Below, piece by piece: positions 5,414-12,990 of a stretch of DNA of 34,067 bases. The translations under genes were made by a program, and so were the position numbers. This DNA comes from an uncultured Flavobacteriales bacterium. GTDB taxonomy: Bacteria; Bacteroidota; Bacteroidia; AKYH767-A; 2013-40CM-41-45. The notes beneath the pieces are model-generated. The model searched no databases. It saw only the letters and a list, made by a program, of their open reading frames with translations, and had not been told where the DNA came from. The stretch is from contig CAYMMN010000001.1 of NCBI GenBank assembly GCA_964391495.1, forward strand, positions 1-34,067, written 5' to 3'. Every line of letters begins with the position of its first letter. Within the stretch, counting starts at the first letter, position 1.

Positions 5414-5917
5414 ATGACGCTCACTGAACTCAATCAACTCGGACCTGCGCAACTCCGCGAAGAATTCATGAAATGTTGTGGATGTACTTCATGGGCTGAG
5501 AAGATGGTTGCATCCGCACCATTTCAAAATCGCGAGGAGGTATTTGAAAAATCCGATCTCTTCTGGAATGAGACCAAGGCTGAAGATTGGCTGGAAGCAT
5601 TTTTACATCACCCAAAAATCGGGGATCTGAAGAGTTTAGAAAAAAAATTCGCCTCGACGAGCAAACTTGCAGGCAGCGAACAGGCTTCTGTGCATTCCGC
5701 TTCACAAAAAACACTTGAAGATCTGGCTGCCGGGAATGATGCTTATGAAACTAAATTTGGATTTATTTTCATCGTTTGTGCAACAGGTAAAAGTGCGGGA
5801 GAGATGTTGGAATTACTGAACAGCCGAATCCACAACAACAAAGAGGCTGAGTTGAGAATTGCTGCAGCCGAACAAAACAAAATAACACGTTTACGTTTAG
5901 AAAAATTATTGTCATGA
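5414..5917 (+). CDS. uraD: 2-oxo-4-hydroxy-4-carboxy-5-ureidoimidazoline (OHCU) decarboxylase
   Basis: Motifs CCGCTSWAEKM..APF, DWLEAFLHHPKIGD and FIFIVCATGKSAGEML, typical of OHCU decarboxylase. ATG at 5414 is preferred over 5384, which would overlap alc by 22 nt. Confidence 0.88.
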   Translation: MTLTELNQLGPAQLREEFMKCCGCTSWAEKMVASAPFQNREEVFEKSDLFWNETKAEDWLEAFLHHPKIGDLKSLEKKFASTSKLAGSEQASVHSASQKTLEDLAAGNDAYETKFGFIFIVCATGKSAGEMLELLNSRIHNNKEAELRIAAAEQNKITRLRLEKLLS

Positions 5918-6255
5918 GTCAGATCACTACACATATTCTGGATACTGCTAAAGGTGTTCCCGCACAAGGCGTTCATCTGGTCCTGGAAGCATTTTCATCA
6001 GACAACACATGGATTCAATTGGCTGAAGGAATCACAAATGCTGACGGACGTGTCAGTGATTTACTCAAAACAGATGTGCTTCTTTCTCCGGGAATTTATC
6101 GGATGACTTTTGAAACATCAGCGTATTTTACACAACAGGGACTGAAGAGCTTTTATCCGTATGTCCAAATTACTTTTGAAGTCAGTGACCCTCGGCATTA
6201 CCACATTCCTCTGCTCTTAAGTCCATACGGTTTCACCACTTATCGCGGCAGCTGA
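5914..6255 (+). CDS. uraH: 5-hydroxyisourate hydrolase (transthyretin-like)
   Basis: 113 aa with N-terminal ITTHILDTAKGVPAQGV and the diagnostic C-terminal tetrapeptide YRGS. 4-nt overlap with uraD. Confidence 0.92.
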   Translation: MSQITTHILDTAKGVPAQGVHLVLEAFSSDNTWIQLAEGITNADGRVSDLLKTDVLLSPGIYRMTFETSAYFTQQGLKSFYPYVQITFEVSDPRHYHIPLLLSPYGFTTYRGS

Positions 6256-6409: not shown

Positions 6410-7903
6410 ATGAATCGTCCTCTGGAGGAAATCCTTCGCAATATTCTGGTAGCAAGGGATCAACCGGCTTTTTGTGTTGCAGGAACACATTACACGTATG
6501 CTGAATTCGGAGCATGCGTCGCGAACATTCAACACCAGATTCAAAGCAAAGGTCTTGAAGGAAATTGCAACATCGGTATTTTGACATACGATGATTTGCA
6601 AACATATGCATCCGTGTTTGCAATCTTATTCAGCGGCCATGCTTTCGTACCGATCAATCCTTTGCATCCAAAGACAAGGAATGAATCCATCATCGAACAG
6701 GCAGAAATAAGTGTATTGCTGAGTAGCAAGCTGGAAGAAGAAGCGATGTCTTTTTCATCCACTTCAACCATGGTACTGAAAACAAATTTGCCTCAGGATA
6801 TAAGCTCTGTTCCTTCTTTTATCGAACCGGAGCCTGAACGGCTCGCTTATATATTGTTCACCTCCGGCAGCACCGGTGTTCCAAAAGGTGTTCCTCTGAC
6901 GTTTCAAAATCTGGAATCATTTCTGAGAGCATTTTTTGCCCTCGGTTTTGAAATCGATAGTTCCGACAGATTCATTCAAATGTTTGACATGACATTTGAT
7001 TTATCCATCATGAGCTATATGGCTCCTTTGTGTATTGGAGCTTGTGTGTACACCGTTCCCTTTGATGGAATAAAATACATGCAGGTTTATCGTTTGCTTG
7101 AAGAGCACCATATCACATTTGCTTTGTTGGTTCCATCAATCATCACACATCTGAGGCCATATTTTGAAGAAATATTTTTAGAGAAAATGAAGTACTCGCT
7201 TTTCTGCGGTGAGGCTTTGTATGAAGATGTTACGTTGGAATGGGCAAAGTGCATTCCGCATGCGCAGTTGCTAAATGTCTACGGGCCAACAGAGGCTACA
7301 ATCTTCTGTACTACTTATCCGATCCACCGAAAAGGAGGAAATAAATGTCTCAATGGAATATTGTGCATCGGTCAGGCTATGAATTCCATGGAAGCGACTA
7401 TCTTCTCAGAAGATGGAAAGCCGGCAGTAGCTATGGAAAAAGGTGAGCTCTGTTTACATGGAGCACAGGTCACTCCGGGATATTGGAAAAACGAGACGAA
7501 AAACAAAGAAGCTTTTTTCAACTACAACAACAAACGCTATTACAGAACCGGAGATTTGTGTTTTGCGGATGCAGAAGGAGACATTAGCTACAGTGGAAGA
7601 ATAGATTTCCAGGTAAAGATCCAGGGCTTTCGTGTTGAATTGGGAGAAATTGAAATGCAGGCCCGTGAATTTTTGAAAACACATAATGTCGTAGCCATTG
7701 CAAAGCAAAATGAAGAAACTGTCTGGCAAATTTATCTGTTCATAGAAAACTTCACTGAATCCACAGCCATGCTGATGAAACATCTGAAAGAATCAATTCC
7801 TTCATATATGCTTCCGGCAAAAATTATCGGTACCGGTTTGTTCCCGTTGAATTCAAATGGAAAAACAGACCGAAAAGCATTGATGGCACAGGCAGGATTA
7901 TAA
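6410..7903 (+). CDS. DltA-like amino-acid adenylation enzyme (ANL superfamily, stand-alone A domain)
   Basis: Core motifs LAYILFTSGSTGVPKGV, MTFDLSIMSYMAP (FDxS with the Asp that binds a substrate alpha-amino group), NVYGPTE, YRTGDL and NGKTDRKAL. About 500 aa with no condensation or thioesterase domain. Confidence 0.85.
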   Translation: MNRPLEEILRNILVARDQPAFCVAGTHYTYAEFGACVANIQHQIQSKGLEGNCNIGILTYDDLQTYASVFAILFSGHAFVPINPLHPKTRNESIIEQAEISVLLSSKLEEEAMSFSSTSTMVLKTNLPQDISSVPSFIEPEPERLAYILFTSGSTGVPKGVPLTFQNLESFLRAFFALGFEIDSSDRFIQMFDMTFDLSIMSYMAPLCIGACVYTVPFDGIKYMQVYRLLEEHHITFALLVPSIITHLRPYFEEIFLEKMKYSLFCGEALYEDVTLEWAKCIPHAQLLNVYGPTEATIFCTTYPIHRKGGNKCLNGILCIGQAMNSMEATIFSEDGKPAVAMEKGELCLHGAQVTPGYWKNETKNKEAFFNYNNKRYYRTGDLCFADAEGDISYSGRIDFQVKIQGFRVELGEIEMQAREFLKTHNVVAIAKQNEETVWQIYLFIENFTESTAMLMKHLKESIPSYMLPAKIIGTGLFPLNSNGKTDRKALMAQAGL

Positions 7904-7919
7904 TCGGTAAACAAAAAAT

Positions 7920-7940
7920 GCTCACACGAATTGTGAGCGT
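7920..7940 (+). other. 7-bp stem / 5-nt loop hairpin in the adenylase-carrier protein spacer
   Basis: GCTCACA-cgaat-TGTGAGC, a perfect inverted repeat. It is not followed by a T-tract, so it is more likely an mRNA processing or stability element than a terminator. Confidence 0.4.
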
Positions 7941-7958
7941 TAATTGAGAGAGAACAAA

Positions 7959-8207
7959 ATGGAAAAACACGAAATATTAAATCAGCTTACAGGAATTTTC
8001 AAAAGAATCTTTGAAAACGAAACTGTCATCCTACAGATGGATACTACTGCGAACGATGTGGACGGTTGGGATTCATTAACACATACTTCCATGATTGTTG
8101 AAGTTGAAAAGCATTTCATGGTGAAGTTCAAATTAAAAGAAGTACTCGGATTTAAAAATGTTGGTGATATGGTAAACATGATCCATTCCAAACTCGCCGC
8201 CGCCTAA
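7959..8207 (+). CDS. acyl/peptidyl carrier protein (DltC-like)
   Basis: 82 aa with DGWDSLTHTSMIV, a DSL phosphopantetheine-attachment serine in a four-helix-sized protein. Lies immediately after the adenylation gene. ATG at 7959 is preferred over the TTG at 7944. Confidence 0.85.
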   Translation: MEKHEILNQLTGIFKRIFENETVILQMDTTANDVDGWDSLTHTSMIVEVEKHFMVKFKLKEVLGFKNVGDMVNMIHSKLAAA

Positions 8208-8216
8208 AGGAAATTG

Positions 8217-9644
8217 ATGGTATTCAATTCATTTACATTCCTGATTTTCTTTTTCCTTTTTGCCATCCTTTACTTCAGGATGAGAGGAAAGGTGCAATTA
8301 CTCTGGCTGCTTACCGGCTCGATAATCTTTTGCGCTTTCTACAGCCTCAAAGGACTTGGAATCCTGTCAGGACTAATCGTGGTCAATTACTTTTCAGGAA
8401 TTCTGATAGAAAAATCATCAAGAAAAGAACTGATACTTTTCCTCAGCTGCCTGGTGAATCTGGGAGCTTTGTTTTTGTTTAAGTATTATAATTTCTTCAA
8501 TCTAGAACTGACATCATTCTTACATTCAATCAATATTGACAACCCATTACCGGTAGTGAATTTTTTAATTCCGGTCGGCTTATCCTATTTCACTTTACAG
8601 GCTATCGGATACAATGTAGATATACAACGCGAGCTGGAAGTTCCCGAGAAAAACTTCCTCGTCTTTGTTACTTACTTCCTCTACTTCCCGAAACTTATCC
8701 AGGGACCGGTGGACAGACCAAGGAATCTTCTTCCACAATTGCATCATGCACAAAAGTTCGATTACAACAGGGTTGTTGGCGGATTAAAACTTATTGCCTG
8801 GGGTTTGATAAAAAAGCTGGTCATTGCCGACAGGCTTTCGATTTTCGTGAGCCAGGTTTACGATCATACTGGGAATTATAGTGGTGTTGTGCTTTTGCTT
8901 GCCGGATTATTTTATATGGTTCAATTGTATGCTGATTTCTCGGGGTATATGGATATGGCTCTCGGTATTTCATCCATACTCGGATTTGAAATCATGCAAA
9001 ACTTCAACAGACCATTTGCCGCTACATCTGTTACCGATTTCTGGAAGAGATGGCACATTTCACTTTCTACATGGCTGTATGAATATGTATACAATCCCAT
9101 TTCACTGCAATGGAGAAATCTCGGAAACTGGGGAATGGTATTCGCAATCTTCGTTACCTTCTTTCTGAGTGGTTTGTGGCATGGAGTCGGCTGGACATTT
9201 ATGACCTGGGGATTGATTAATGGACTCGCGATGGGTTATGAATTGCGCACGGCAAAATGGAGAAAAAAAACGTTTAAAAAATTATCTCCGACGTCTGCAA
9301 AATATCTCTCCATCTCCATCACATTTGTCTTTACCTTACTTAGTTTCACATTTGTGCGCGCCAACACGGTGAGTGAAGGATGGTATGTACTTACACATCT
9401 GTTTGATACTTCAAAAGTGGTGTCACTTTTTTCTCTTGGTCTGGATCCATTGAATTTCATGCTCGCATGTCTGGGAACAGCACTCTTACTCATTCTCCAA
9501 TTCTATCAACCTAAAATAAGTTTCAGCGAAGCACTTGCAGCAAAACCAATGTTGATTCGCTGGTCAGTGTATGGTCTTATTGCCCTTGTTATTTTAAACC
9601 TCGGAATCCTTGGAGGAAAAGGATTTATCTACGCTCAATTCTAG
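8217..9644 (+). CDS. MBOAT-family membrane O-acyltransferase (DltB/AlgI-like)
   Basis: Polytopic membrane protein with the MBOAT signature FWKRWHISLSTWLYEYVYNP (conserved His) and SGLWHG. Confidence 0.88.
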   Translation: MVFNSFTFLIFFFLFAILYFRMRGKVQLLWLLTGSIIFCAFYSLKGLGILSGLIVVNYFSGILIEKSSRKELILFLSCLVNLGALFLFKYYNFFNLELTSFLHSINIDNPLPVVNFLIPVGLSYFTLQAIGYNVDIQRELEVPEKNFLVFVTYFLYFPKLIQGPVDRPRNLLPQLHHAQKFDYNRVVGGLKLIAWGLIKKLVIADRLSIFVSQVYDHTGNYSGVVLLLAGLFYMVQLYADFSGYMDMALGISSILGFEIMQNFNRPFAATSVTDFWKRWHISLSTWLYEYVYNPISLQWRNLGNWGMVFAIFVTFFLSGLWHGVGWTFMTWGLINGLAMGYELRTAKWRKKTFKKLSPTSAKYLSISITFVFTLLSFTFVRANTVSEGWYVLTHLFDTSKVVSLFSLGLDPLNFMLACLGTALLLILQFYQPKISFSEALAAKPMLIRWSVYGLIALVILNLGILGGKGFIYAQF

Positions 9645-9647
9645 ACA

Positions 9648-10736
9648 ATGGCAAAGCTGATCCTTAAATTATTTCTTTTTGCTTTGCTCGCCATTGTACT
9701 GAGCATTCCGGTGAGAAAATTTTTACGTGCTCCGGATCGTGAATTGCCATGGTCCTACAGCTTTGATGCTTTGCATTTAAAAAGAGAATACCTGTGTACG
9801 TACCCGAATCGTTTCAACCTCTTGTTTATTGGTTCCAGTTCCACACGAAGAGGTTTTGTGCCACAGGTTTTCAATGAATCTACGGACTCATCCTTGCATA
9901 TCAATTCATTTAATTACGGAGTTGACTGGATGGGCTTTCCGGAAGTGTATTATATGCTTGATCATGTTGTTAAAGAAAACAGAGAAGGCACACATTATTT
10001 ATTCATCGAATTATCGAAAATAAAAATCATTGATTACCAGAATATGCATACTGCCCGTGCTATTTACTGGTACAACTGGTCTGATTTTACTTTTACACTT
10101 CGATCCATCGTCTCTTCTCCTTCCCCACCTTTGGTTAAAGTTGCCGCTCTTTCTTCTCATCTTATTGGTTACATGGATCATTTACTCAATGTTGGATCCA
10201 TTAGCGACCGGAATGATTATCACAAAAGACAAGCGATGGTGACTGATTCCATTGCTGACATGGGCGAAGCATATAATGGTTATAGTGGCAAAGAAATCCA
10301 TGAAGATGCAGGTCGTGAACATTTCCTAAAAGACACAAGTGGTTTAGCCGCACGAAAACTTAATTCCGCACAAGCATTTGAAGAGCTGGAGAAAAATCCT
10401 GATTTGATAAAAAACTATAATCATATTTATCTTGACAGGATCAATTCCACCATTCAAAAGTTACAAGAAAATGGAATTTATCCGGTCTTTGTGATGAATC
10501 CGCGTGCCGACCCTCGACAATACAAGGAAATTCTGACAGTATTTTATAATATTGATCCTCGCTATCGAATAGAAATTGCGGACAGTAGAAAGTATCCGGA
10601 ATTGTATCTTTCACAATACGCTTCTGACGAAACACATTTGAATGAAGAAGGAGCTGTATTGTACACAAAATATCTGGCGAGAGAATTCAATATGTTAATT
10701 AATGCTTCAACAGATACATCGCGAATCCAACCATGA
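9648..10736 (+). CDS. single-pass membrane protein with SGNH/DltD-like signatures (putative acyl-transfer accessory protein)
   Basis: N-terminal TM helix. The LLFIGSSSTRRGF block (GSS nucleophile-like) and the C-terminal SDETHLNEEGA block (DxxH) resemble SGNH blocks I and V as found in DltD/AlgJ/AlgX-type partners of MBOATs. Starts 4 nt after the MBOAT stop. Confidence 0.55.
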   Translation: MAKLILKLFLFALLAIVLSIPVRKFLRAPDRELPWSYSFDALHLKREYLCTYPNRFNLLFIGSSSTRRGFVPQVFNESTDSSLHINSFNYGVDWMGFPEVYYMLDHVVKENREGTHYLFIELSKIKIIDYQNMHTARAIYWYNWSDFTFTLRSIVSSPSPPLVKVAALSSHLIGYMDHLLNVGSISDRNDYHKRQAMVTDSIADMGEAYNGYSGKEIHEDAGREHFLKDTSGLAARKLNSAQAFEELEKNPDLIKNYNHIYLDRINSTIQKLQENGIYPVFVMNPRADPRQYKEILTVFYNIDPRYRIEIADSRKYPELYLSQYASDETHLNEEGAVLYTKYLAREFNMLINASTDTSRIQP

Positions 10737-11443
10737 CCAGAATACTCATCATAGCCGACGATCTGGGAATTGATTCGCTCACCAATCAGCGAATCACGGA
10801 TTGTTATGAAAAGGGTTTGATCTCTTCCACTTCGGTTATGGTTACCATGCCCGGTTTTGAGGAGGCTGTTGAGTGGTATAAAAAACAAACACCGGAACCA
10901 AAACTCGGTATTCATCTGGATCTGGACGGAGGGAAACCTGTTTCGGAAGTTTTCAAAAGTGCTTATGGCGAAAAGAAATTATTTTATCCGGGTGGACGGC
11001 TTTCCGCTGATCAAAAATACCTGAACATTCTTGAACAGGAGCTCGACGCGCAAATTCAAAAATTAATCAAAGCCGGAATTTCTCTTCATCATATCGATTC
11101 ACATCATCACAAACATACCAATTGGCCTGTTGCAAAGATTGTAGTCCGACTTGCAAAAAAATACGGTGGAGTCAGGATTCGTGTTGCCGGAAATGTACTC
11201 TATCCAAGCGCCTTTCATAAACAAATGTATCGATCGCTATTAAACAGCTATTTCAAGAAAAACAGCAATCCACAAAATCACATTCCCTATTTTGCACGTC
11301 TGGAAAAATTTATGGCAGCAAGACCCTCAATACAGGGTAACAGTATTGAATTGATGACTCATCCCGGCATGGATCAGGACTATCAGCTGCTAAACAGTCC
11401 TGCTTTTTCTGAGTTTCTCAAAGACTATTCCCTGATCCGATAA
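10733..11443 (+). CDS. YdjC/ChbG/HpnK-family carbohydrate deacetylase
   Basis: N-terminal ILIIADDLGIDSLTNQRITDCYEKGLISSTSVMV and later HIDSHHHKH, typical of the YdjC family. ATGA overlap with the upstream gene. Confidence 0.8.
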   Translation: MTRILIIADDLGIDSLTNQRITDCYEKGLISSTSVMVTMPGFEEAVEWYKKQTPEPKLGIHLDLDGGKPVSEVFKSAYGEKKLFYPGGRLSADQKYLNILEQELDAQIQKLIKAGISLHHIDSHHHKHTNWPVAKIVVRLAKKYGGVRIRVAGNVLYPSAFHKQMYRSLLNSYFKKNSNPQNHIPYFARLEKFMAARPSIQGNSIELMTHPGMDQDYQLLNSPAFSEFLKDYSLIR

Positions 11444-11455
11444 AAAGTATTTGCT

Positions 11456-11463
11456 TAGATTTG
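11456..11463 (+). promoter_or_regulatory. candidate Bacteroidota -7 box (TAGATTTG)
   Basis: Matches TAnnTTTG about 100 nt upstream of the ATG at 11563. No good -33 TTTG at the expected spacing. Confidence 0.25.
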
Positions 11464-11562
11464 GCAAATAAATTAGTACACAAAAACCTGGTACTTGTTA
11501 CCTCTTTAGAATCTCCCCATTCCCCTAATCACCTCCGATCCAACAAGAACGAATACGTCTGT

Positions 11563-12990
11563 ATGAAAACATCCATTTCAACCGCTGCTAAAGAGAAAAT
11601 TCTAAGTGATTTACAGAAAGCGAATTTAGTCTTTCAAAAAGTTTATCCGGGTGATAAGCCCGACAGACAACCGGTACATACAGTGTATGGTGGCGCGAAT
11701 TTGTTTCGTTCTGATTCCACAAAAAAGATGGGAGAGATTGCCTTACGTAGCCTCACCTCCTATGCTCCTGATTTTACTGTTTTGGCAAGAGTTCTCGAGC
11801 TCAGTGGTCACGAATCGCTTCCTACTGAAAAATCAAAGATTACCGAGCTGACCTCCGCTCTGGATAAAATGACATCGGATGAACGTAAGAAACATCCGGC
11901 ATGGTTATCCTATACAGTGTACAAAAAAATCATCGCGAAACTGGAACACGAAGCTGTAGAAGATTTCCGTATTGATTTTGAAGATGGATTTGGAAATCGT
12001 CCGGATGATGAAGAAGACGCGACTGCAGTAAATGCCGCGAAAGAACTGGCCAAAGGAATGAAAGAAAAAACAATCTCACCATTCATTGGCATTCGAATCA
12101 AACCATTCACAGAAGATCTAAAACAACGTGGTATCCGTACCCTTGATATTTTCCTGACAACACTTCTTTCTGAAACCGGAGGTAAATTGCCCGATAATTT
12201 TGTGGTCATGCTTCCGAAGGTTACCATACCTGAACAAATGCAGGCGCTGGTTCAGTTGTTTGAAATCATTGAAAAAGAAAACAACATTCCTGTAGGCACA
12301 TTGAAAATGGAAATGATGGTGGAAGCTACTCAAGCCATCATGGATAAAAACGGAGTAAACCCGTTGCGCGGTCTCATCATGGCAGCAGGAGGAAGATGCA
12401 TTGCTGCTCATTTCGGTACTTATGATTATACAGCTTCCTGTAACATCACCGCTAAATACCAAACCATGGATCATCCGGTTTGTGATTTCGCGCATCACAT
12501 GACAAAGGTAGCATTGGCAGGAACCGGAATTTTTCTTTCCGATGGAGCAACCAATGTCATGCCGATTGGTCCGCACAAGGGAGATAATCTCACAGATTTA
12601 CAAAAACAGGAAAATACAAATGTAGTGCACCGCGCCTGGAAATTATGCTATGGTCATTCCATGCATTCTCTTCGCAATGGTTTTTATCAGGGCTGGGATC
12701 TTAATCCCGCGCAATTACCGATGCGTTATGCAGCGGTGTATACTTTCTTTCTTGAGAGTTATGAAGATGCCGCAGCCCGACTGTTTCACTTTGTAAACAA
12801 AGCGGCACAAGCGACACTTTCAGGAGATATTTTTGATGATGCTGCAACCGGACAAGGACTTCTGAATTATTTCCTGCGGGCCATGAATTCAGGAGCGATT
12901 TCTGAAGAAGAAGCACTCGTAACCGGATTGACACTGGAAGAAATTCACAGCAGGTCGTTTTACAGGATACTTCGGGGGCGGAGGAAGTAG
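11563..12990 (+). CDS. HpcH/HpaI-aldolase / citrate-lyase-beta (CitE) / malate-synthase-like TIM-barrel family protein, specific function unknown
   Basis: FRIDFEDGFGNRPDDEED (D/E-x-ED metal and substrate motif) and LKMEMMVEATQAI resemble CitE/HpcH-type enzymes. 475 aa from the ATG at 11563. The TTG at 11461 adds 34 non-conserved-looking residues. Confidence 0.5.
   Translation: MKTSISTAAKEKILSDLQKANLVFQKVYPGDKPDRQPVHTVYGGANLFRSDSTKKMGEIALRSLTSYAPDFTVLARVLELSGHESLPTEKSKITELTSALDKMTSDERKKHPAWLSYTVYKKIIAKLEHEAVEDFRIDFEDGFGNRPDDEEDATAVNAAKELAKGMKEKTISPFIGIRIKPFTEDLKQRGIRTLDIFLTTLLSETGGKLPDNFVVMLPKVTIPEQMQALVQLFEIIEKENNIPVGTLKMEMMVEATQAIMDKNGVNPLRGLIMAAGGRCIAAHFGTYDYTASCNITAKYQTMDHPVCDFAHHMTKVALAGTGIFLSDGATNVMPIGPHKGDNLTDLQKQENTNVVHRAWKLCYGHSMHSLRNGFYQGWDLNPAQLPMRYAAVYTFFLESYEDAAARLFHFVNKAAQATLSGDIFDDAATGQGLLNYFLRAMNSGAISEEEALVTGLTLEEIHSRSFYRILRGRRK

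Follow-up and report, generated by a model that had tools for sequence, protein, structure and literature searches.

A carrier-protein-fed MBOAT–SGNH cassette in a Bacteroidota genome and its probable role in aminoacylation of an envelope component

Introduction

What would a diderm bacterium without known teichoic acids do with a gene set built on the logic of the Dlt pathway? The question is raised by a 34,067-nucleotide stretch of DNA from an uncultured Flavobacteriales bacterium (assembly GCA_964391495.1, contig CAYMMN010000001.1, positions 1 to 34,067 of the forward strand), hereafter called the window, which carries at 6410–11443 of its plus strand five intact, closely packed open reading frames (ORFs). 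In order, and all on that strand, these encode a stand-alone adenylation enzyme, a carrier protein, an MBOAT-family acyltransferase, a membrane-anchored SGNH-fold protein and a YdjC-family deacetylase. A first-pass annotation of the same DNA had delimited the five ORFs, likened the order adenylase to carrier to MBOAT to SGNH protein to that of Dlt, and assigned the host to Bacteroidota. Both the ORFs and the Dlt-like logic hold, the order recurs in four further species of the genus and is therefore not a matter of chance, and the related loci agree with the assignment of the host.

MBOAT–SGNH systems are divided into two kinds, Dlt, which is fed by a carrier protein and has a separate DltX, and the rest, which are fed by acyl-coenzyme A (acyl-CoA) and have a fused shuttle (PMC12148441). 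In this scheme the motif FxYxxF is the acyl shuttle: the acyl group leaves the MBOAT on the tyrosine of the motif and is delivered to the SGNH enzyme. In Dlt the motif belongs to the microprotein DltX, whereas PatA and other MBOATs have it as a C-terminal fusion borne on two additional helices. The acyl-tyrosine shuttle has been demonstrated experimentally for PatA and DltX, and the MBOAT–SGNH pathways outside Dlt have no carrier protein (PMC12148441).

The cassette described here crosses this division, in that it joins carrier feed with a fused shuttle in a Gram-negative host. By its sequence features it is a hybrid, with a DltA/DltC-like loading half and a Pat/Alg-type membrane half, and is not a Dlt orthologue. 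We consider it rather probable that the cassette forms a carrier-protein-fed MBOAT–SGNH acyl relay which aminoacylates a component of the Gram-negative envelope. The literature searched contained no description, from Bacteroidota or any other diderm, of an MBOAT system fed by a carrier, and the lipocone paper mentions only an unrelated MBOAT–SGNH association.

Results

The membrane acyltransferase carries its own shuttle

The MBOAT (8214–9644, plus strand) comprises 476 residues, or 475 if translation begins at the ATG at 8217, and matches the Pfam family MBOAT (PF03062) with 84.5 bits. The histidine motif that had been read as WHISLSTW at first pass is present, with WHISLS at residues 280–285 (His281), and His323 in the segment LWHGVGW aligns with the WHG histidine of DltB. 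The DltB structure 6bug covers only residues 110–391 of the protein. The 85 residues beyond it form two extra hydrophobic helices and end in FIYAQF (residues 471–476, bases 9624–9641), which contains Tyr473. No separate DltX ORF was found between 6256 and 11460 on either strand, where the sole frame ending in F.Y..F is that of the MBOAT itself. Every MBOAT of the lineage ends in F[IV]Y.Q[FY]; the FxYxxF motif is kept in all 19 full-length relatives examined and is present in 29 of the 32 metagenome MBOATs scored. On these features the cassette MBOAT is of the PatA/AlgI kind, with a DltX-type motif fused to its own C-terminus and no DltX gene, which corrects the Dlt-like reading of the first-pass annotation.

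A maximum-likelihood tree of these MBOATs was built without characterised outgroups (no DltB, PatA or AlgI references). The carrier-linked MBOATs, namely the window group and those of L008–L010, form a clade in it with support of 100/100 and a long stem. The sister group of this clade consists of the MBOATs from a Lentimicrobiaceae array, which has carriers as well. Within the limits set by the missing outgroups, the tree fits an origin of carrier feeding inside an acetyl-type MBOAT lineage.

The adenylation enzyme is predicted to activate a small amino acid

The adenylation enzyme (6410–7903, plus strand, 497 residues) matches the Pfam family AMP-binding with 202.5 bits. Among NCBIfam models it scores highest against TIGR01733, the amino-acid adenylation domain (303.7 bits, cut-off 317.4), and the DltA subfamily model is matched with 287.9 bits. 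Full-length matches in the PDB are the adenylation (A) domains of nonribosomal peptide synthetases (NRPS), with DltA (3dhv/3fcc, 189.6 bits) tying with the second A domain of LgrA (about 189 bits). In a search with the pocket segment alone (residues 185–345) the best match was 4oxi at 58.4 bits, followed by FscH (6ea3) and Bacillus cereus DltA (3dhv). The entry 4oxi is deposited as 'enterobactin synthetase component F-related protein', and we take it to be Vibrio cholerae AlmE with glycyl-AMP. Both the Asp that binds the alpha-amino group (Asp197, codon at 6998, within TFDLSIMS) and the catalytic Lys (Lys485, codon at 7862) are present, as is Cys266 (codon at 7205).

The ten Stachelhaus positions, for which we assume the GrsA numbering, were placed by means of the conserved cores FD.S, GE, YGPTE and GK.D. 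The specificity code so obtained is DLMSLCVIFK; the corresponding residues are DLMSLCTVAK in B. cereus DltA and DLHTFCLIAK in AlmE. It is identical to the DltA code at seven of the ten positions (D, L, M, S, L, C and K), including the first six, and to the AlmE code at five (D, L, C, I and K). The pocket Cys is the residue used by DltA to select D-Ala and to disfavour L-Ala. At the three positions where the code differs from that of DltA the residues are bulkier (V, I and F), which suggests that the side chain to be accommodated is very small. The code is identical in homologues at 57–86% identity and is the commonest one among the metagenome relatives listed (24 full-length sequences at about 45–57% identity, on contigs of 29–62% GC), so the pocket is constrained across distant lineages. 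Taken together with the matches above, the code makes a small amino acid, either glycine or alanine, the most likely substrate.

We think it quite unlikely that the cargo is an acyl group other than an amino acid, for instance a short hydroxy acid or a fatty acid, which would make the relay an unusual O-acylation system. The adenylase does also match acyl-CoA ligase models (TIGR03098, 186.5 bits; PRK06187, 164.8 bits), the carrier protein is nearer to acyl carrier proteins (ACPs) than to DltC, and sister MBOAT–SGNH pairs that have no carrier presumably use acetyl-CoA. However, the highest-scoring models are those for amino-acid adenylation domains and DltA, NRPS A domains, DltA and AlmE come first among PDB structures, and Asp197 is invariant in the seven close homologues aligned and retained in the metagenome relatives listed, with one exception. 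The first-pass annotation had argued for an amino acid over a fatty or aryl acid and had proposed extraction of the specificity residues as a check; the extracted code, which is DltA-like and of the amino-acid type, with DltA and AlmE as its nearest counterparts, supports that argument, as do Asp197 with Lys485 and the best-matching model.

The carrier protein

The carrier gene ends at 8207 on the plus strand, and a start at the ATG at 7959, giving 82 residues, is more likely than one at the TTG at 7944, giving 87. The product scores 21.2 bits against Pfam PP-binding, just past the cut-off of 20.8. Its phosphopantetheine serine (Ser39 in the shorter form, Ser44 in the longer one) lies in a WDSL motif that is kept in all relatives, in keeping with the 82-residue carrier with a DSL serine that had been annotated. 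The protein is about 50% identical over 74 residues (E 1.1e-20) to PDB entry 2lml, a 'putative acyl carrier protein', and much nearer to it than to any fatty acid synthase ACP or to DltC. The entry 2lml may be Geobacter GmACP3, which is linked to lipopolysaccharide (LPS) genes. A phosphopantetheinyl transferase is encoded in the same genome.

The SGNH-fold partner

The fourth protein (9648–10736, plus strand, 362 residues) has no Pfam or NCBIfam match. It was annotated at first pass as a single-pass protein with GSS and DETH blocks, and one N-terminal transmembrane helix (residues 1–28), GSS at 62–64 and DETH at 327–330 are indeed found; the predicted catalytic residues are Ser64 (codon at 9837), Asp327 and His330 (codon at 10635). 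An AlphaFold2 model computed with nine homologues (mean pLDDT 77.5) consists of an N-terminal membrane helix and an alpha/beta core with a helical insertion of about 130 residues, at about residues 144–275. Foldseek against the PDB returned DltD structures as all of its top seven matches, over the full length and with probabilities of 0.92–1.0 and E-values of 2e-3 to 2e-2. VIA gave Z of about 10 to many SGNH enzymes, with PatB among the top (Z 10.1).

A profile search among 1.84 billion representatives found 3,458 relatives at E ≤1e-3. In 154 members of the family G62, S64 and H330 are conserved at 100%, N89 at 97% and D327 at 88%, a pattern consistent with a Ser/His/Asp centre of the SGNH type and a G-S-S block like that of DltD. 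Within Bacteroidota the family is scattered, occurring in 7 of 401 species genomes, and an MBOAT gene lies directly upstream of the SGNH gene at every locus examined. Membership of the DltD family was considered and dropped in view of low Foldseek TM-scores, the unspecific VIA result and the silence of the Pfam DltD model PF04914, which found nothing in the whole genome at E up to 10. The language-model atlas places the protein as weakly akin to DUF1574/LB_356.

Comparison with Dlt, Pat and Alm systems

If the cassette were a true orthologue of Firmicutes Dlt, its product would be expected to D-alanylate a teichoic-acid-like polymer. The genes do follow the same logic, the pocket code has the seven residues given above, Cys included, in common with DltA, and DltD structures are the best Foldseek matches. 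We nevertheless regard orthology as highly improbable. The scores lie far below the cut-offs for DltA (TIGR01734, 277.1 bits, cut-off 559.85), the DltC type (NF003464, 19.9 bits, cut-off 68) and DltB (TIGR04091, 148.5 bits, cut-off 375), and with PF04914 also silent every Dlt model is missed, so these genes are not members of the Dlt families. There is no DltX, its motif being fused to the MBOAT; the nearest kin of that MBOAT, in a tree that holds no characterised outgroups, are Bacteroidota MBOATs; and the host is a diderm member of that phylum.

The cassette and Dlt are alike in having a stand-alone adenylase that loads, or in the cassette is predicted to load, a small amino acid on a dedicated carrier, a carrier-fed MBOAT, an FxYxxF tyrosine shuttle, and a membrane-anchored SGNH protein with a GSS block and a helical insertion. 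They differ in that the cassette lacks a DltX microprotein and has its shuttle on two extra helices of the MBOAT, the carrier is of the 2lml type and not DltC, a YdjC gene is added, and no teichoic acids are known from the diderm host. PatA/PatB and the AlgI type resemble the membrane half: an MBOAT of about 475 residues has the C-terminal FxYxxF on extra helices, the SGNH partner beside it has a single N-terminal helix as its anchor, and the host is a diderm. Those pairs are fed by acetyl-CoA and have neither carrier nor adenylase, whereas the cassette, like its relatives, has both before the MBOAT in the same operon.

In the AlmEFG system of V. cholerae, also Gram-negative, the DltA-like adenylase AlmE loads glycine on the carrier AlmF, but AlmG is an LpxL-type acyltransferase of the cytoplasmic face, whereas the cassette would use an MBOAT–SGNH relay on the periplasmic side; no match to an AlmG-type (LpxL-like) acyltransferase was found among the five cassette proteins or the flanking genes. 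The dra locus of Bordetella pertussis and dlt-like loci of enterobacteria provide Dlt-like, carrier-dependent aminoacylation in a diderm with an undefined acceptor. They are reportedly close homologues of dltABCD, with no report there of a fused shuttle motif or a YdjC gene.

Relatives with and without carriers

Seven of the ten genome loci with the SGNH family have a carrier gene before the MBOAT, and in six of these seven an adenylase is present, either before the carrier or, for L009, elsewhere in the genome. The contig of L006 starts inside uraH and still includes the adenylase. Neither carrier nor adenylase accompanies the MBOAT–SGNH pairs of L011, L013 and L014 or six further pairs from the phylum sample.

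In environmental metagenomes the adenylase family is common. A scan with the adenylase alignment confirmed at least 521 stretches as relatives, and 80 loci were kept; the same pocket code recurs on contigs of 29–62% GC. The common gene orders in these are adenylase–carrier, MBOAT–adenylase–carrier and adenylase–GNAT–carrier with or without a following MBOAT. A GNAT-family protein of about 215 residues is encoded beside the adenylase in about 50 of the 80 loci (L032–L111), and the same GNAT occurs at L008:7613–8281 and L010:7584–8255, usually between adenylase and carrier. Its best matches, which are weak, are alpha-N-acetyltransferases of the RimI type, acting on N-terminal alanine. The window cassette is without a GNAT gene. 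A homologue (37% identity, E 4e-43) is encoded elsewhere in the same genome, G000, at C50:10576–11241 (L118:3077–3742, minus strand), where it adjoins AIR-synthase-related and M78-peptidase genes and is far from any MBOAT.

The same genome encodes three more MBOATs (C9:14603–16949, C20:11321–13700 and C227:1225–3619). They are 34–38% identical, all end in FIYFQF, and each is followed by a membrane-anchored partner of 316–332 residues that belongs to another family; no carrier or adenylase was found with these three pairs. In the Lentimicrobiaceae array (L012:1–12300 with L022; metagenome-assembled genome, contig CAZZLL010000026.1) four MBOATs, two carriers and four SGNH paralogues stand in a row, in the order adenylase, carrier, MBOAT, a 325-residue ORF, MBOAT, carrier, MBOAT, SGNH, MBOAT and three SGNH genes. 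The adenylase code there is DAISLGVIFK, and two of the four MBOATs have the same sequence. Downstream of the carrier-fed cassette of L009 a protein of 554 residues (L009:3044–4708) has a weakly formyltransferase-like N-terminal part and a GINT1_N/GH43-like C-terminal domain (171 bits).

Insertion and selection

The same five genes occupy the same place in four other species of the genus (L005–L007, G406–G409), between uraH, encoding hydroxyisourate hydrolase (5914–6255, plus strand; TIGR02962, 141.7 bits), on the left and a DUF6986 gene (11461–12990, plus strand; PF22484, 616.2 bits) on the right. Three sister genera of the family have the order puuD-allB-alc-uraD-uraH-DUF6986, with uraH directly adjoining DUF6986. 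DUF6986 is present in 29 of the 36 genomes of the family, and no cassette was found there outside the genus, g1. The adjacency of uraH and DUF6986 in the sister genera implies that all five genes, YdjC included, arrived as one block, which now lies within an operon for urate breakdown.

Selection was estimated against G406 (dS 0.36–0.49), as dS against L005–L007 is saturated. The dN/dS values are 0.034 for the adenylase, 0.010 for the carrier, 0.048 for the MBOAT, 0.066 for the SGNH protein and 0.041 for YdjC; all five genes are under strong purifying selection and are maintained. Compared with the same genome, uraH (window 5914–6255 against L031:14006–14344) has a dS of 1.36 and 87.6% amino acid identity, and the cassette genes, at 94–98% identity, are much less diverged. 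The step could reflect a recombination boundary on the left side of the insertion.

The YdjC deacetylase is an addition of one genus

The fifth gene (10733–11443, plus strand) encodes a YdjC/ChbG/HpnK-family de-N-acetylase of 236 residues (Pfam YdjC, PF04794, 141.1 bits, cut-off 29.7). Its ATG overlaps the TGA of the SGNH gene as ATGA at 10733–10736; the two genes have a gap of 0 in L006 and lie 2–32 nt apart in L005, L007 and G406. The motifs ADDxG, GxHL and HIDSHHH align to EF_3048 (2i5i) and ChbG (7vi8), and the likeness to ChbG and HpnK thus extends over the domain and the conserved metal and catalytic motifs. It differs from both in lying far under the equivalog cut-offs (ChbG NF002559, 107.6 bits, cut-off 227; HpnK TIGR03473, 79.5 bits, cut-off 232.6). 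HpnK offers a precedent for de-N-acetylation of a lipid-linked GlcNAc. No signal peptide and no transmembrane segment were found in the protein, and cytoplasmic action is therefore expected.

Among the loci and genomes examined, the five-gene set was found in five species, all of this genus. YdjC is found in 5 of the 146 genomes of the order, again all of that genus; none of the 80 metagenome loci has it, nor do L008–L012. In the phylum sample five further genomes have a YdjC homologue, at no more than 32% identity; homologues at 50–58% identity exist in assemblies (P0172–P0174). YdjC is a lineage-specific add-on, because it is confined to one genus and the relatives usually have GNAT instead. 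The first-pass annotation had counted YdjC as part of the unit and had suggested that a de-N-acetylated amino sugar may belong to the acceptor chemistry. The first idea holds for this genus, where YdjC came with the block, overlaps the SGNH gene and is under purifying selection, and fails as a general feature of the system; the second is weakened by the same restriction to one genus and the prevalence of GNAT in relatives.

It is accordingly possible, though we do not favour it, that the four-gene relay works as proposed and YdjC is a co-transcribed passenger with a task such as deacetylation of chitooligosaccharides or amino sugars. Besides the narrow distribution, this would agree with ChbG as the best family model and with a core relay that works without YdjC elsewhere. 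Against it, YdjC came into the chromosome in one block with the rest of the cassette, lies close to the SGNH gene in the loci compared, and is intact in all five species under the selection noted above. As a member of the unit, YdjC might unmask the amine of a hexosamine, either in the acceptor or in a precursor of it, a guess that draws on co-inheritance and selection.

Discussion

A mechanism for the relay

The gene content, motifs, folds, conservation, insertion history and selection reported above are direct observations, and from them we infer a relay in which every chemical step is modelled on homologous DltA, DltC, DltB, DltX and DltD and on PatA and PatB. In the first step the adenylase would activate glycine or D- or L-alanine with ATP and attach it as a thioester to the phosphopantetheine arm of the 82-residue carrier. 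The loaded carrier would then dock on the cytoplasmic face of the MBOAT, where His323 would move the aminoacyl group to Tyr473 of FIYAQF on the periplasmic face. From the Tyr473 ester the group would pass to Ser64 of the SGNH protein (Ser64/Asp327/His330), which would in turn transfer it to a hydroxyl, possibly an amine, of an acceptor exposed to the periplasm. Candidate acceptors are LPS or lipooligosaccharide, peptidoglycan, a glycolipid or another glycan. As a fifth step, and here we are guessing, the cytoplasmic YdjC could take the N-acetyl group off a hexosamine of the acceptor or of its lipid-linked precursor. The neighbourhoods of the cassettes are housekeeping or catabolic in character and are not glycan loci, which mildly favours a general envelope component as the acceptor.

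Several observations weigh against an aminoacylating relay of this kind. No cassette gene reaches a Dlt family model. The specificity call uses ten aligned positions, three of which (322, 330 and 331; V, I and F) differ from DltA. The Foldseek matches of the SGNH protein to DltD have low TM-scores of 0.33–0.38, and VIA fails to distinguish DltD from generic SGNH enzymes and esterases. The cargo of the GNAT-bearing relatives may be N-capped, and the window cassette may carry out chemistry that differs from theirs. No glycan or LPS biosynthesis genes were found near the cassette, so the acceptor is not indicated by its surroundings, and YdjC is seen in no relative cassette outside one genus, so its tie to the relay may be incidental.

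Should the aminoacylating relay nonetheless be correct, and the cargo be glycine or alanine, it would give diderms an unstudied route for adding positive charge to an envelope polymer. We suggest tentatively, as a doubtful extension, that the product is an undescribed cationic decoration of the envelope. YdjC would free a hexosamine amine on a lipid-linked precursor, the relay would add a glycyl or alanyl group in ester or amide linkage, and carrier-fed MBOATs with a fused shuttle would make up a widespread third class beside Dlt and Pat/Alg. Possible effects, if the cargo is glycine or alanine, include changes in surface charge, in interactions with cationic peptides and phages, and in floc formation in activated sludge. 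The YdjC-bearing version of the cassette would be a natural handle for finding the acceptor. Three related genomes appear, by their isolate names, to come from activated sludge.

Flanking genes and local signals

Upstream of the cassette lie genes of purine catabolism, namely puuD and those for allantoinase, allantoicase, OHCU decarboxylase and hydroxyisourate hydrolase, and downstream lies the DUF6986 gene. The true start of the latter is probably the ATG at 11563, as judged from the homologues, which align from residue 35 of the ORF that begins with TTG. A TAGATTTG box, which conforms to the Bacteroidota -7 consensus, is located at 11456–11463, immediately past the YdjC stop. The 154-nt gap that precedes the adenylase gene has no such box (TAnnTTTG) on its plus strand, and a sigma-70 scan gave background level only. 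The frequency of TAnnTTTG in the window is not above chance (25 found, 34 expected). The sole long junction of the cassette is a 55-nt spacer between adenylase and carrier (7904–7958). It contains a perfect 7-bp hairpin at 7920–7938, which a terminator scan assigns to the minus strand, with a T-run after the stem.

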